Part shown: positions 39,232 to 47,360 of the stretch, piece by piece
Layout: the number at the start of each line of letters is the position of its first letter
Position numbering within the stretch: the stretch's first letter is position 1
Origin: a virus
Strand: one strand, 5' to 3'
IMG/VR virus record: IMGVR_UViG_2509276021_000001
Location: 422-64,421 of that record
Length of the DNA: 64,000 bases
Notes under the pieces: model-generated
The model's database searches: none
Told to the model about the DNA's origin: nothing
What the model saw: the letters and a program-made list of their open reading frames with translations, nothing else
Translations under genes and position numbers: made by a program

Positions 39232-41094
39232 TCAAAAAACGTTCGCCATCGCCTCTTCGAGCGCGGCCATTTCGGCCTCGATCTTCGCTTCGAGCGCGTC
39301 GAGATCCTCTTCAGAGTCCCAGGGCGACTGCTCGCTTGGCTCGACCAGGTCGACCGCACCGGAAAGCATCGCGAGCACCGTCATGCCGTCGATGCGGCCG
39401 CGCTGGTGCTTCTTGATGAAGAAGCGGTTGTTCTGGGCGTCGGGCTGGATAGCAGCGTTGCCCGAGCACCACTTCGTAATCGGGCTCTCGTCGATGACGA
39501 TCTTGCGCTGCAGGATCCTGTCCTCGAATTTCTGCAGCGATCGCGGCATCCAGAGCGCCTTCTTCGACTGCATGCCGAGGCGGCCCTGTCCGTGGATCAT
39601 GATCTTGAGGCCGGAACCGACATCCTCGTCCGGATCCCAGACCCAAGTGTCGAGGCCGATATTGTCGCAGGCTTTGCGGAAATCGGTCAGGTAGGCGGGG
39701 TCGACGACAAGCGCCGGGACATTGTAGGTCGCGACCAGCTTCTTGATCAGCACCGCGATAAACTCGTATTCGATGGACCGGCCCGGCACCAGGTTGAGCA
39801 GCGGCGGCACGGCGGCTGCCCACTCGACATACTGGGCGTGATCTTCCTCGGACTTTTCCTTCAGCTTCTCTGTCGGCTTCCAATATTGGACGGCTGCATG
39901 CAGGACGCCCTTGGCATCTTGCCAGCCCATGCCGACGGCGGTCAGGTCGTTTTTCTTCGACAAGTCGAGCGTCAGGTAGACGTCGGCGGTGCCGGCGTCG
40001 GCGATATCGACATTGCCCTGCACCGCCTCCCAGAAATCGAGATCGATCCAGTATTCGGACGAACCGACCGGAACGCCGAAATAGAGGCGCTCGGTGCTCA
40101 GGCGCATGCCGACCGAGTTGCGGGCGGAATTCACCTCGATTCGGACGTTTTCGATCGGGAACGTGATGCCGAGGCAAGGCATCGACTTCTGCCAGCAGAT
40201 CTCGTCCTCGAACGGCTTATCGCCCGGATCGATGCGAGCGATGAAGGCGAACGCTGAATCATCCTCCGCCTCGCCGCGCAGGATGCGCTGGTGCAGATGG
40301 CTCCATTCGGTCGCGACCGGCTGGTCGGCTGCCGGCGTGTTCGTCGACATCCACAGCAGGAAGTCGCCGGGCATCTTGGCGCCGGCCGACTTCCACGTTT
40401 TCAAGGCGCCGTCCGATTTCCACTCGTGGATCTCGTCGGCCGCCACATATGTCGGGCGCGGACCGTTGACCTTCTCGTCACCAGCAAGCGACCGGAACTT
40501 CGAACCGCTCTCCGGATGCTCGAGCATCCAGATCATGTCGCCGGTACCGCGCGTCAGGATCGTTCCGCGCGACACCAGGCTTTCGCCGTCGAACTCGGCA
40601 TCAGGCATTTCGGCCAGCGCCATGGCGGCCGCATCGCCGAAAAGAACGTTCGCCTGGTTGCGGTCCTTCGCGATCGCGTAACATTCGGCGCGCGGGATAC
40701 CGCGAAAGCCCATGTTGTAGAGGCCGAGCGCGGCGGCAACCGGCGACTTGATCTGGCCCTTGCCCGTCTCGATCCAGGATGAGCGGAAGCGCAAGCGGCC
40801 GCTGTCCTTGCGGTACCAGCCGTAGAGCGAGCCGACAACGAACTTCGTATAGCTCGGGAGGTTGAACGGTTCGCCGGCTTTCGCGCCGGCGGTCACCATC
40901 AGCACCGAAGGAAAAAACTTTAGCGCCCTGTTGGCGGCTTCAGGCCGCCATTCGAGCCCACGGGCTGGGCCATACTTCAGATCGTTCAGATGCCGCTGGC
41001 AGGCCAGCCGGCCGTATTGCCCCGAGGTGATCCAGCCGTCGACAACCTCTTGGGCCCAGTCCGTGACCGGGTCACTTATTTCCAAGGTAGTCAT
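39232..41094 (-). CDS. terL: Terminase large subunit
   Basis: ETGKGQIKS Walker A, AADEIHE Walker B, LDLSKKNDLTA nuclease, RIDG. Confidence 0.96.
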   Translation of the reverse strand: MTTLEISDPVTDWAQEVVDGWITSGQYGRLACQRHLNDLKYGPARGLEWRPEAANRALKFFPSVLMVTAGAKAGEPFNLPSYTKFVVGSLYGWYRKDSGRLRFRSSWIETGKGQIKSPVAAALGLYNMGFRGIPRAECYAIAKDRNQANVLFGDAAAMALAEMPDAEFDGESLVSRGTILTRGTGDMIWMLEHPESGSKFRSLAGDEKVNGPRPTYVAADEIHEWKSDGALKTWKSAGAKMPGDFLLWMSTNTPAADQPVATEWSHLHQRILRGEAEDDSAFAFIARIDPGDKPFEDEICWQKSMPCLGITFPIENVRIEVNSARNSVGMRLSTERLYFGVPVGSSEYWIDLDFWEAVQGNVDIADAGTADVYLTLDLSKKNDLTAVGMGWQDAKGVLHAAVQYWKPTEKLKEKSEEDHAQYVEWAAAVPPLLNLVPGRSIEYEFIAVLIKKLVATYNVPALVVDPAYLTDFRKACDNIGLDTWVWDPDEDVGSGLKIMIHGQGRLGMQSKKALWMPRSLQKFEDRILQRKIVIDESPITKWCSGNAAIQPDAQNNRFFIKKHQRGRIDGMTVLAMLSGAVDLVEPSEQSPWDSEEDLDALEAKIEAEMAALEEAMANVF

Positions 41095-41560
41095 CGGCGG
41101 CGCGCTTCTTCCTTCCGGATCTCGGCGGCGCCTTCTCGGCCCGGCCGCGCTCGACAGGCGGGATGCCCAGTTCGCGCTCGGCGGCCATGACGCGCTTCAT
41201 CGCAGCGTCGGCGATCGCCTTGTAGGGGTTGTGCATCATGACCTTGGTTTTCGGTGCCTGTGTCATGACGCCGTATCGCGCGACATGGGCCTCTGCGAGT
41301 TTCCAGTCGGCATAGGCGCCGGCAGCCATTTCGATGAGGACATCGTTATCGATGTCTAGCAGCCCCTTGCGGGAAAGGCTTTGCGTAAGGGTCTTCCAGC
41401 GCTCGCTCGCGATGTTCGCGCGGCGCTTGCCCCATTCCTTGACGTTCATCGTGAGGAGCCAGTTAGGCTCCTCGATCTCGACGACAACGTGCTCGGCGCC
41501 CGGAAATGCGCCCTGCACCACATTTGATACCGGGGTGGGGTTCGGTTTTCTGCCTCTCAT
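41072..41560 (-). CDS. terS: Terminase small subunit (P27 family)
   Basis: MRGRKPNPT, HNPY, ELGIPP.ER motifs. Confidence 0.9.
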   Translation of the reverse strand: MRGRKPNPTPVSNVVQGAFPGAEHVVVEIEEPNWLLTMNVKEWGKRRANIASERWKTLTQSLSRKGLLDIDNDVLIEMAAGAYADWKLAEAHVARYGVMTQAPKTKVMMHNPYKAIADAAMKRVMAAERELGIPPVERGRAEKAPPRSGRKKRAADDYLGNK

Positions 41561-43558: not shown

Positions 43559-43888
43559 TCATGACTTGCTCCTATGCCAAGGGTGGCGAGGGTCGAGGGG
43601 CGAGCCGTCCACGGCGCAGCCCTGCACCATCAGCTTGCCGCTTCGTCGGCGAGCTCCGCCACGCTGCTCTTTTACCTGCCGGTCATGATGGCCGCAGAGT
43701 GTGCGCGTGTTGCCGATCACATCTAGTGCCGTGGGATGGTCTACATTTGGACGGGTGACGACGTGGTCACAGACAAGGCGGTCAGTGCGACCACAGCCAG
43801 GCACAACGCAACGCCAGCCATCGCGCTCATGGGTGGCGCGCTTGAGCGCCTTCCAGTGCGGAGAATCGTAGTAGCGATTCCGGGACAT
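43559..43888 (-). CDS. Packaging-associated HNH endonuclease
   Basis: Y....WKALK...RDGWRC..PGC, DHV, NTRTLCGHHD, G.PLDPRHPW. Confidence 0.9.
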   Translation of the reverse strand: MSRNRYYDSPHWKALKRATHERDGWRCVVPGCGRTDRLVCDHVVTRPNVDHPTALDVIGNTRTLCGHHDRQVKEQRGGARRRSGKLMVQGCAVDGSPLDPRHPWHRSKS

Positions 43889-44055
43889 TGATCATCACCA
43901 ACTTGTGATATGCGCGAAACGCACATGGATTCGCTTTAGGATTCACACTTGGCGTGCCGAACCACAACTGACAAACACTCAGCCACTTGCGTTCGAACCA
44001 CATGCGCGCATAGTGCGCAGCAGGCAGCACCGCTTTTTTTGGTGAGAGGTGCGCC

Positions 44056-44178
44056 ATGCAATCCGACAGTCTAACGATTTCCGTTCTCGGAATGAACGCC
44101 ACAGCGAGCGGGCAATTTGCCATCCTCGCCCTGGTGGCGATCTTTGCGACCGTGGCGCTACTGCGATTGCGGAAATGA
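44056..44178 (+). CDS. 40-aa membrane peptide (absent from the ORF track)
   Basis: GAGAGG RBS; MQSDSLTISVLGMNATASGQFAILALVAIFATVALLRLRK; followed by an AGGCGG...CCGCCT hairpin. Confidence 0.55.
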   Translation: MQSDSLTISVLGMNATASGQFAILALVAIFATVALLRLRK

Positions 44179-44240
44179 AAAGGCGGCCAACCCGGAAGGG
44201 CGACCGCCTGTCTTTGGACGCAAATCAAGCATCCGCATCC

Positions 44241-44269
44241 AAATGACTCGTTTTGCGCTCGCCTGTCAA
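44241..44269 (-). promoter_or_regulatory. Candidate late promoter
   Basis: Minus strand TTGACA-N17-TCATTT pointing toward HNH and terminase; weak -10. Confidence 0.4.
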
Positions 44270-44415
44270 CAGGACTGCCATCCGCTGGCCTCGCTTCCCC
44301 ACGCCTCGCGAATCTCAATCTATGAACCTGATTGGAGAAGGGAGAAGGGCCTTAAAGGCCCTCTCCATCAGAGATATAAAATAAAAATCCGCGCGCGCAC
44401 GCGTGAGGCTGCGCC

Positions 44416-44555
44416 AATTTTCCGCGCTTTTTCCGCCGATCTTCCGCAGGCCGGTTTCCACATCCCTTGTGCGGCTTGCAACCATGAAGGTAACGCGGCG
44501 GATTTTCCGCAGTTCTTCCGCAGATTTTCCGCATTCCTTCCGCGAAGCGTCCGCG
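44416..44555. repeat. Eight 11-bp phased direct repeats (core TTCCGC) in two blocks
   Basis: TTCCGC at 44420, 44431, 44442, 44505, 44516, 44527, 44538 and GTCCGC at 44549. Confidence 0.85.
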
Positions 44556-44854
44556 CGAGCGCTCTTTATATTTGGGCCGATTTCAACCGCTGGTCCGACC
44601 GGCAAAAAATATTTTCGAATGGCGGGATTTCGGGCAGGAAAATGCGCGCTGAGACGGTCGGAAACGATGCCAGCGGCGACGAATTCCGAATCAATTGACG
44701 CTGGCGACCGCGCGCCAAAACCGAAATAAACGCGGTTTCGCATCTACCGAACAGTCAAAACGAAAATTAATGCGCTTTCAAATCAAAGCGTTAGCGTTTT
44801 GACGTCTGACATCTTGCAAAACCGTATTGTAAAACGAAATGAAATCGATATTCT

Positions 44855-45464
44855 CTCAATTACCGAAGCGAAAACGAAATCACTTCGGGATTGAGCGGCG
44901 ATTTTATTGCCTCTCAGCGTTCTTTGAAAAGCTGGCGAAGGTCCGATCATCGGCCCCAAGGTTTAGGCGACAACCTCGCGAAAGCGGGCAAAGCTTCGAT
45001 TGTAAGGCGGACGGTAGGGGCGAGCATATCAGCGGAATAGGGCGACCCAATGCGCAAAGCATTACCGGCATGACAAAGCCGGGTTTGGGGAAGGACGCGC
45101 GGCAAGCGGGAGGGAAACAAGCCCCTCATGCGGACATCAAATGACTTGCCTCTGTGAAGGTTCCGACCGAAGCGACCCTGATGCGAAGCGAAAGCCGAGT
45201 GTGTCAGATCATCGTTAGGCGGCGGGAAGATAGCAGGCAACCCAGATAACCGCGTCCGCAGACTGGGCAAGAGCTGCACCCCTCAACCGCTAACAGGCCT
45301 GGGTTCCCCTAGCACAAGATCACAACGGAAAATCTGAAGGGCAAGCAACACCTTGCCCCTCATTCCACATGCGAGGCAAGCGCCGCCGACTGGCTGGCGC
45401 TTTCCCGGCATTTGGCCGTCAACCCGCCCCTGCGCGAGGGGCACTCAATCAGGAGAATACGACA
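44855..45464 (+). ncRNA. Candidate large structured leader RNA
   Basis: About 600 nt without a credible ORF; at least 15 stems found by eye, nested long-range pairings and many GNRA-type loops. Confidence 0.5.
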
Positions 45465-46064
45465 ATGGCACAGTTCGCAATCATCACCGGCAAGGCACTC
45501 AAGAACGCAATCGCCGGCCGCGGCCAGCAGATCGCCACCTTCACCCAGCGCGAGCACCAGCTCGCCGTCTCCGCGCTCGCCCACCTCGGCGAACACAACG
45601 ACGTTATCTATGTCCAGGCGCTCTATGACATGAGCCCGGCTAACTACCAGCGCGGCCTGCGCCTGTGGTTCCTCGAATTCGGCAAGTGCACGTTCAAGGC
45701 CAACGAGACCGGCAAGGGCGGCGCGTTCATCTATGCCAAGTCCAAGGCCAGCGACATCGAGGGCGCGATGAAGGTCGCCCCGGCCAACTTCGAGAAGGAA
45801 GGCAAGGAGTCGACCACGGAAGCCAAGGCGTTCAGCGTGACCGAATATCTCGCCAAGGTCGTCAAGAAGCTGACCGACGAAGGCGCCGACGTGCGTGTGA
45901 TCCGTGCCATCGAAGGTGCGCAGAAGGTCGCCGCTGGCCCGGTCGTGGTCGTCCGCAACCAGAAGCCCCTGCCGGCAGCCGCCGAAAAGGCTGCAGCGCC
46001 GAAGCGCGCCGCCAAGAAGGCCGACCCGATGCAGGCACCGGCAGCAAACGCCGTCGCCGCCTAA
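45465..46064 (+). CDS. First gene of the plus-strand operon; 199-aa hypothetical with Ala/Lys tail
   Basis: AGGAGA RBS, ATG 45465, extreme optimal-codon bias. Confidence 0.85.
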   Translation: MAQFAIITGKALKNAIAGRGQQIATFTQREHQLAVSALAHLGEHNDVIYVQALYDMSPANYQRGLRLWFLEFGKCTFKANETGKGGAFIYAKSKASDIEGAMKVAPANFEKEGKESTTEAKAFSVTEYLAKVVKKLTDEGADVRVIRAIEGAQKVAAGPVVVVRNQKPLPAAAEKAAAPKRAAKKADPMQAPAANAVAA

Positions 46065-46357: not shown

Positions 46358-46383
46358 CCACCCACCACAATCCAGACGCTGCA

Positions 46384-46409
46384 AGCCCGGCCATCGTGCC
46401 GGGCTTTTT
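46384..46409 (+). terminator. Intrinsic terminator
   Basis: AGCCCGGC-CATCGT-GCCGGGCT-TTTT. Confidence 0.8.
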
Positions 46410-47330: not shown

Positions 47331-47360
47331 AGCCCGGCCTCGAGCCGGGCTTTTGCTTTT
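47331..47360 (+). terminator. Intrinsic terminator
   Basis: AGCCCGGC-CTCGA-GCCGGGCT-TTTGCTTTT; stem identical to that at 46384. Confidence 0.8.

Follow-up and report, generated by a model that had tools for sequence, protein, structure and literature searches.

Positions 44855 to 45464 of the 64,000-nucleotide (nt) stretch of viral DNA analyzed here (hereafter the window; part of the 76.7-kilobase (kb) virus record IMGVR_UViG_2509276021_000001 of IMG/VR) constitute a gene-free leader of approximately 610 nt, extending from a conserved sigma-70-like promoter to the ribosome-binding site and ATG (position 45465) of the first gene of an operon, in a phage which belongs to a family of temperate cos-type phages of the Rhizobiaceae. 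Comparison with homologous loci reveals this leader to be a conserved, covarying, multi-domain non-coding RNA. It is proposed, with a probability of roughly 0.55, that the leader represents the untranslated start of the first early rightward operon and that a hairpin and an adjoining boxA element recruit Nus factors, thus permitting antitermination into the early genes.

A conserved and covarying non-coding leader RNA

Approximately 20 distinct homologous leaders were collected from Rhizobiaceae prophages and three IMG/VR contigs. These include the leaders of provirus G001, of two more IMG/VR contigs and of the Rhizobiaceae genomes G002, G283, G050 and G305, together with further representatives obtained upstream of homologs of the 199-amino-acid (aa) protein encoded by the first operon gene (gene 1) in public assemblies. 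Following the removal of duplicates, 17 leaders were alignable, and three distant ones (G148, G076 and L044) were recognized by motif. Gene callers leave a gap of 0.7 to 2 kb before gene 1 in every homologous locus, and the leader directly precedes this gene in every relative, with the exception of G305, in which one small open reading frame (ORF) intervenes. This ORF of G305 specifies 66 aa (L031:1819-2019) and lies between the leader end, which carries a canonical terminator, and the gene-1 homolog.

An earlier sequence-only reading of the window had described the region as a densely structured non-coding leader of about 600 nt and a candidate novel large phage RNA. The homologs bear out this description: the region is non-coding, conserved and covarying in the alignment-based fold, with the + strand favored and no Rfam family matched. 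Substitutions among the leaders were distributed over the three codon positions as 391, 435 and 414, thus revealing no codon periodicity; the homologs differ by many frame-breaking insertions and deletions of 1 and 2 nt; and neither the longest open frames nor an in-frame ATG at 45369 are conserved. Since codon periodicity is lacking and the two internal leader ORFs returned no Pfam or PHROG match, a translated ORF does not explain the region. The Rfam scan which that reading had suggested, applied to the window and to the loci of eight relatives at the gathering score and at E <= 10, gave no family match (best sub-threshold score, 17 bits versus a cut-off of 40), and thus no GOLLD, ROOL, OLE, HEARO, raiA, group I or II intron, RNase P, 6S, tmRNA or aptamer. 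ARAGORN found nothing in the leader, and similarity to host 16S/rrn sequence outside boxA was confined to matches of 12 to 15 nt in single leaders, which were judged to be due to chance.

Single-sequence folding against shuffled controls and covariation among homologs had also been named as checks. The former gave a z-score of -1.41, with 2 of 20 shuffles folding equally well; because the single sequence thus folds no better than chance, the stems counted by eye prove nothing alone. The latter, conducted on the leaders described above, supported the fold. RNAalifold applied to 12 leaders returned -252.8 kcal/mol, versus -150.3 +/- 6.6 in 30 column shuffles, and compensatory double changes were present in 48 pairs, versus a mean of 22.6 (maximum, 29) in the shuffles. 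When the partners were slid by 1 to 3 columns, only 10 to 23 pairs retained such double changes, and the paired cells, which amount to 89.6% in the proposed fold, fell to 34 to 46% (pairing and compensation statistics were computed in Python). The + strand is favored as that of the RNA: its alignment energy is lower (-252.8 versus -238.3), C-G to U-A changes pass through U-G and many G-U pairs are invariant, as would fit a + strand RNA, hairpin loops conform to GNRA on this strand only (GAAA, GCAA, GCGA, GGAA and GUGA), and the promoter, boxA and downstream gene are all oriented in this direction.

Coordinates of the helices and of the elements surrounding them are given in Table 1. About half of the helices which had been picked out by eye are borne out by covariation or conservation. 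The CCGAAG/CTTCGG hairpin (P1) was recovered by RNAalifold from 12 and from 17 leaders and is nearly invariant, with few informative changes, while the cap CGC-GAAA-GCG of the long arm exhibits a C-G to U-A change passing through U-G and a C-G to A-U change. AATGC/GCATT occurs in four or more stem versions and CCGGC/GCCGG in about five, the latter position (45065-69/45078-81) displaying at least five different stems, each with its own complement. GGGCAAG/CTTGCCC, AGCGCC/GGCGCT and GCCCCT/AGGGGC are likewise supported by conservation or covariation, and GAGGG/CCCTC is present in 8 of 12 leaders, being cleanly deleted in the other 4. CCCAG/CTGGG (45241-45/45264-68) is compensated in L042; because this helix would cross that formed by 45093-99/45251-57, a pseudoknot or an alternative fold is possible. 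Four of the long-range pairings seen by eye were wrong. For TTGGGG, which had been matched to CCCCAA, the supported partner is CCCCTCAACC (45279-45288), and a U-A to A-U exchange is seen (pair 45086:45283 of this closing helix is U-A in five leaders and A-U in four); AGGTT/AACCT varies on one side with no compensation; GCAG at 45233 pairs with CTGT (45152-45155) rather than CTGC, with three pair types per position; and GTTAGGCGG/CCGCTAAC belongs to an insertion confined to 3 of the 12 leaders, and is disrupted in L005.

Double changes within the central domain affect all five pairs of GCAAG/CUUGC and four of the five of UCUGU/GCAGG. The most highly conserved block, GATCACAACGGAAAATCTGAAGGGCA, is near-invariant in 15 of 16 leaders, including those harboring the alternative central domain (type B) described below, is recognizable in the distant G148, L044 and L057, and occurs once in the window; the hairpin into which it runs (45339-45/45352-58) is compensated in L057 and L042. 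Covariation extends to the three 3' hairpins, in the form of G-C to U-A at 45380:45400 and C-G to U-A at 45406:45418 and 45427:45441. The hairpin at 45375-45405 is terminator-like in the window, but only TTTCCC follows it; canonical intrinsic terminators are present at the equivalent place, at the end of the fold and before the gene, in G305 and G076. No supported pairing covers the Shine-Dalgarno AGGAGA (RNAalifold, 17 leaders).

TABLE 1 Features of the leader and of the start of the operon (window positions)
Feature	Position(s)	Strand	Description
Predicted sigma-70-type promoter	44827..44854	+	-35 TTGTAA 44827-44832, 16-nt spacer, -10 TATTCT 44849-44854
Hairpin P1	44859..44891	+	CCGAAG/CTTCGG stem with outer AAU/AUU; loop with AAAACGAAAT motif
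Hairpin P2, boxB-like position	44892..44917	+	Ends 0-1 nt before boxA; C-G to A-U among compensated versions
boxA-like element	44918..44930	+	CGTTCTTTGAAAA; family consensus GGTTCTTTGAAAA; directly after P2
Long irregular arm	44931..45033	+	44931-38/45022-33, 44941-44/45017-20, 44953-55/45006-08, 44960-68/44993-45001 (RNAalifold, 17 leaders)
Arm cap	44975-44988	+	CUCGC-GAAA-GCGGG; C-G, U-G and U-A versions at 44979:44984; A-U version at 44975:44988
First of two hairpins	45049-53/45058-62	+	Stem versions AATGC, AAGAC, AAAAC, AAGAGGT
Second of two hairpins	45065-69/45078-81	+	Conserved loop AUGACAAA; stems CCGGC, CCCGG, CCGGCC, CTGCTG, GCCAG
Central domain	45082..45288	+	Closed by long-range helix 45082-90/45279-88
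Central-domain helices	45093-99/45251-57; 45101-08/45142-50		Latter with optional hairpin 45112-24
Central-domain helices	45151-55/45233-37; 45161-65/45223-27		Latter with variable insert
Most conserved block	45316..45358	+	GATCACAACGGAAAATCTGAAGGGCA; runs into hairpin 45339-45/45352-58
Three 3' hairpins	45375-87/45392-45405, 45406-09/45415-18, 45426-31/45437-42	+	Within 45375..45442
Shine-Dalgarno AGGAGA and ATG of first early gene	45451..45467	+	Read in sequence, kept in alignments
First operon gene (gene 1)	45465..46064	+	199 aa, phrog_1448
Strong intrinsic terminators inside operon	46383..46406 and 47331..47351	+	AGCCCGGCC...GCCGGGCT then TTTT

The boxA element and the proposed antitermination

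The boxA-like element of the window, CGTTCTTTGAAAA, is one base off the family consensus, GGTTCTTTGAAAA, and lies on the transcribed strand approximately 60 nt downstream of the conserved, predicted -35 and -10 elements. It is near-invariant in 20 leaders, and in all 20 a hairpin abuts it, ending 0 to 1 nt before its first position. The consensus is identical (13/13) to the boxA of the ribosomal RNA (rRNA) operon (rrn) leader of host G305 and matches 11 of 13 positions of GGTTATTTGACAA, the corresponding element of the G283 rrn leaders, which is also that of G473 and G002. In the complete genome of G283, each of the three 16S genes is preceded, at a distance of 199 nt, by GGTTATTTGACAA, which itself directly follows a hairpin, host rrn leaders and phage leaders thus having the same hairpin-then-boxA order. 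The phage and host elements fit the published gammaproteobacterial boxA consensus GYTCTTTAANA (PMC5725501) except at one position (G for A), a deviation which is common to both. The element of the leader is the only match with two or fewer mismatches in the 64-kb window, in which about one is expected by chance, so that the scaled chance expectation for a 600-nt leader is approximately 0.005. Its assignment as boxA is based jointly on four points, i.e., position, the adjoining hairpin, near-invariance in 20 leaders and identity to host rrn. No second boxA was found elsewhere in the 64-kb window; a UGUGUG run is present in some leaders only, and no boxC was recognized, no host-specific boxC consensus being at hand.

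The sequence-only reading had suggested that the leader might be a processive antiterminator, with the put RNA of phage HK022 as its model. The suggestion of antitermination finds support in the hairpin and host-type boxA, which that reading had not seen, and not in a put-like fold; because a host-type boxA is preceded by a hairpin, Nus-factor antitermination of the rrn, lambda nut or T7 type is indicated. Host RNA polymerase would start near 44860 on the + strand (the sequence predicts a transcription start at about 44859-44862), and the first 75 nt of the transcript would mimic the host rRNA-operon antitermination signal, a hairpin being followed by boxA. NusB-S10, together with NusA, NusG and SuhB, would load on the nascent RNA, and the elongation complex thus modified would resist Rho and perhaps, in part, intrinsic terminators. 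Polymerase could then cross approximately 500 nt of untranslated RNA and continue through a terminator-punctuated operon, while the fold would stay part of the messenger RNA and may tune or stabilize the antiterminated complex or the message.

In addition to the hairpin and boxA, antitermination is supported by the conserved terminators after gene 1 or gene 2, by the precedent of T7 and by the lack, in the window, of a terminator with a proper U-tract between the fold and the gene. The downstream operon is indeed terminator-rich, as the sequence-only reading had it: strong intrinsic terminators are present at two positions (Table 1), and the same AGCCCGGCC...GCCGGGCT-TTTT terminator is found after gene 1 or gene 2 in L041, L043, L047 and L056, though not in all relatives. 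That reading had seen no N-like gene, and no gene for an N-like arginine-rich protein was recognized in general protein-family scans of the window. To the left of the leader, on the opposite strand, are the genes for an HNH endonuclease (43559-43888), the small terminase (41072-41560) and the large terminase (39232-41094); because these run the opposite way from the same gap, the leader heads an operon which runs away from the packaging side. By analogy with lambda-type packaging polarity, the operon probably sits at the genome end which enters first from the virion, in which case no phage protein would be present at its first transcription.

Among described systems, the rrn leader signal (boxB hairpin, boxA and boxC, with NusA/B/E/G, SuhB and S4) resembles the phage leader in that a hairpin is followed directly by boxA after a host promoter, in that its boxA sequence is that of the phage family, and in that a long untranslated structured RNA follows in both. 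Unlike rrn, the phage leader lacks a recognized boxC, possesses a single promoter and a single boxA, and leads by way of a fold of approximately 480 nt into protein-coding genes. In T7, the early promoters used by the host polymerase are followed by a boxA element for antitermination (PMC3709561, which cites Savalia et al. 2010), and the T7 early region (A0-A3, boxA and the first early genes, at the first-injected end) shares with the phage leader a host promoter followed by boxA before the early genes; unlike the temperate rhizobial phages, T7 is lytic and has no comparable conserved 500-nt fold between boxA and the first gene. Lambda nutL and nutR likewise place boxA beside a hairpin in the early leader of a temperate phage, with terminators downstream, but in the order boxA then boxB and with N, whereas the phage leader displays the rrn order of hairpin then boxA, no N-like protein was found, and gene 1 is predicted to encode a folded helical protein. 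HK022 putL and putR may be likened to the leader, by analogy only, as cis-acting early-leader RNAs of a temperate phage without an N-like protein, yet put RNA consists of approximately 70 nt in two stem-loops and requires no Nus factors, whereas the leader has boxA and the 480-nt fold. GOLLD and ROOL are, like the leader, phage-borne RNAs of several hundred nt which are rich in covariation and GNRA loops, and neither gave an Rfam match. Judged from its sequence, the boxA part belongs to the rrn/lambda nut/T7 kind, and the fold matches no described family; the combination of boxA and a large fold has, as far as we found, not been described for rhizobial phages.

Several points weigh against the antitermination proposal. 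A strict-consensus promoter scan did not list the TTGTAA/TATTCT site, and the promoter therefore stays a predicted one; its -35 (TTGYAA) and spacer are kept in 14 of 16 aligned leaders. Substitutions are present inside boxA in L005, L041, L042 and L044, and the strand test, in which the helices found in both strand folds contained 33 G-U versus 22 A-C cells, is not decisive. In Escherichia coli, rrn-type boxA complexes mainly counter Rho and counter intrinsic terminators weakly, so that boxA alone may not explain read-through of the operon terminators. Finally, boxA requires approximately 40 nt, which leaves unexplained both the conservation of 480 further covarying nt and the existence of at least two exchangeable versions of the central domain.

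The exchangeable central domain and alternative roles of the fold

Positions 44855-45034 at the 5' end and 45314-45464 at the 3' end are common to all close leaders, and the intervening approximately 280 nt occur in two non-alignable versions. Type A is that of the window, and type B, present in five leaders (L036, L038, L043, L047 and L053), replaces not only the central domain but also the hairpins from 45035 onward and the tail as far as 45313. Both types are rich in hairpins and GNRA loops and are closed by a long-range helix with the 3' strand CCUCAA (the type-B helix was identified by eye), and their distribution is independent of gene-1 similarity. A 1774-nt contig from a wastewater run matches the conserved leader flanks (L036:1623-2216) and, where the leader has its middle of 522 nt, carries a different stretch of 293 letters, which suggests a third version of the central domain. 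RNA sequencing runs were looked up for the window, and none was listed. From a rice-paddy metatranscriptome, one contig of 172 nt, of low depth, was obtained which corresponds to the type-B central domain (G283 leader) and contains nothing of the adjoining gene; as a sign of expression it is weak and only a hint, given that DNA carry-over is possible.

Leader DNA is rare, being present in 4 to 5 of 401 sampled genomes of the host family and 3 of 173 of the genus, and the gene-1 protein was found in 6 of the 401 family genomes. Neither type-A nor type-B leaders matched any cultured phage in BLAST searches, exact-pattern scans of IMG/VR returned only three related contigs, the remaining matches being coding look-alikes, and the leader patterns were absent from two metagenome scans. 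A search with nhmmer of the regions upstream of distant protein homologs gave no match; in these same regions, boxA, the 3' block and the hairpins were recognized upon visual and motif-based inspection. Among plasmids, the sole BLAST match was a piece of 187 nt (window 44975-45161) on pRL11-type chromids. This piece is located directly after a dual-specificity phosphatase gene on the chromids of Rhizobium leguminosarum and R. ruizarguesonis (L001:4001-4181 and L002:4001-4176), with a shorter copy at the orthologous place in G473 (L059 near 1501). It was considered, and rejected, as an independent RNA gene, because the partner strands of three long-range helices are missing and the copy in G473 is truncated further; with these partners lost, it appears to be a remnant left by recombination with a phage of this kind.

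The swapping of the central domain as a unit, irrespective of gene-1 similarity, is one of several observations which would suit the main rival explanation, in our estimation rather unlikely, namely, that the fold is itself a functional RNA, a phage non-coding RNA of approximately 450 to 550 nt which is made first in infection. Such an RNA, which is compatible with the antitermination proposal, might be released ahead of gene 1 by processing or termination and work in trans, e.g., by titrating a host factor or a defense system as a decoy or sponge, by modifying RNA polymerase or the ribosome, or as a partner of the gene-1 protein; boxA would then serve only the making and folding of a long untranslated RNA, as it does for rRNA. 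The size and depth of conservation exceed the needs of a Nus loading site, the presence of a nearly unvarying 25-nt stretch (45316-45341) and of the conserved AUGACAAA loop suggests that specific contacts are made, and both the canonical terminators of G305 and G076 and the 172-nt contig without a flanking gene would fit an RNA ending ahead of gene 1. However, the window and its close relatives harbor neither a good terminator nor a known processing site between fold and gene, the leader is always directly upstream of one gene family, the metatranscriptome contig is a single one, and neither similarity to an Rfam family nor a partner or target was found. A further, rather unlikely reading is that the leader represents a phage device in which a host rRNA-type boxA drives a large (0.5 to 0.9 kb) folded RNA, the first product of infection and a new class of non-coding RNA. 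Such an RNA might, for instance, be a processive antiterminator which is bound to RNA polymerase and greatly exceeds put in size, or might distract a host factor or a defense system as a decoy; the exchangeable central domain would set its specificity.

A 5' leader folded into several junctions in which unpaired nucleotides are conserved, terminator-like 3' hairpins whose counterparts in G305 and G076 are canonical terminators, and a tight association with a single gene family, maintained between proteins as little as 42-48% identical, are features that would be expected of a sensor, i.e., a riboswitch-like or protein-binding attenuator which responds to a host metabolite, a tRNA or the gene-1 protein and gates the early operon, either by deciding at the 3' hairpins whether transcription ends or reads through, or by controlling translation. 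We regard this as improbable: no covariation-supported, mutually exclusive terminator/antiterminator pairing over the 3' hairpins was found, the supported structure leaves the Shine-Dalgarno sequence accessible, no Rfam aptamer was matched, a single ligand is difficult to reconcile with two or more central modules that do not align, and a length of approximately 600 nt far exceeds that of known riboswitches.

Genomic surroundings and meaning of the leader

Gene 1 is followed by a DUF932 gene and then by further genes on the + strand. The predicted fold of its product (predicted local distance difference test score, 69) returned no informative match in PDB, VIA or Atlas, and in T7-like phages such as Acinetobacter phage Aristophanes, homologs belong to the first early genes. 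In Aristophanes and Pseudomonas phage C171, the gene-1 homologs are also preceded by gene-free stretches of 1.2 to 1.3 kb (L091:1-1700 and L092:294-1615), and no boxA-like motif was found ahead of the homologs in these two phages.

The gap between the HNH gene and gene 1, which includes window 44001-44448, spans approximately 1.58 kb and is conserved at the DNA level in relatives; the minus-strand ORFs 43827-44318 and 44315-44743 are probably not genes, having no family match and being uncalled in relatives. Upstream of the promoter, at 44406-44555, an 11-base-pair phased repeat of TTCCGC type forms two blocks (of three and five copies) and is conserved in G001; these repeats are possibly binding sites of terminase (cosB-like), of an origin or of a regulator. 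Three copies of a AAAACGAAAT-type motif, all oriented alike, lie within 44718-44892, the first approximately 90-140 nt ahead of the start, the second in the spacer of the promoter and the third in the P1 loop, and an inverted repeat, CGCTTTCAAATCAAAGCG, is present at 44773-44790; in sequence, the motifs and the inverted repeat together look like a repressor operator set. Across the gap from the leader in a relative (L057:970-1206) lies a gene of Acb2/Tad1 type (anti-CBASS or anti-Thoeris sponge), which fits an anti-defense neighborhood.

The proximity of the leader to this repeat array, to an AT-rich tract and to the HNH/terminase side of the genome, and the purine richness of its RNA (AT skew, +0.16 to +0.34; GC skew, up to +0.17), which favors RNA-DNA hybrids, would be in keeping with conservation for a DNA-level function (an origin, a cos/packaging region, an RNA primer or an R-loop, with hairpins that are incidental or form in single-stranded DNA), but this is highly improbable, as the compensatory changes keep pairing and not sequence, the invariant G-U pairs and the C-G to U-A changes via U-G fit a + strand RNA, GNRA loops are confined to the + strand, and boxA and the promoter point in the same direction.

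The findings described here add a structured-RNA family of approximately 600 nt, with about 20 members, clear covariation and no Rfam entry, and allow the gene-free gaps of 0.7 to 2 kb in these prophages to be annotated. The element of the window family is, as far as our literature search found, the first host-type boxA in a phage of alphaproteobacteria. If the fold is functional itself, its two exchangeable central domains represent a natural experiment on specificity. Under the proposed Nus-factor antitermination, the logic of T7, lambda and rrn would extend to rhizobial prophages, which appear to have borrowed the host rRNA antitermination machinery for their first transcript.

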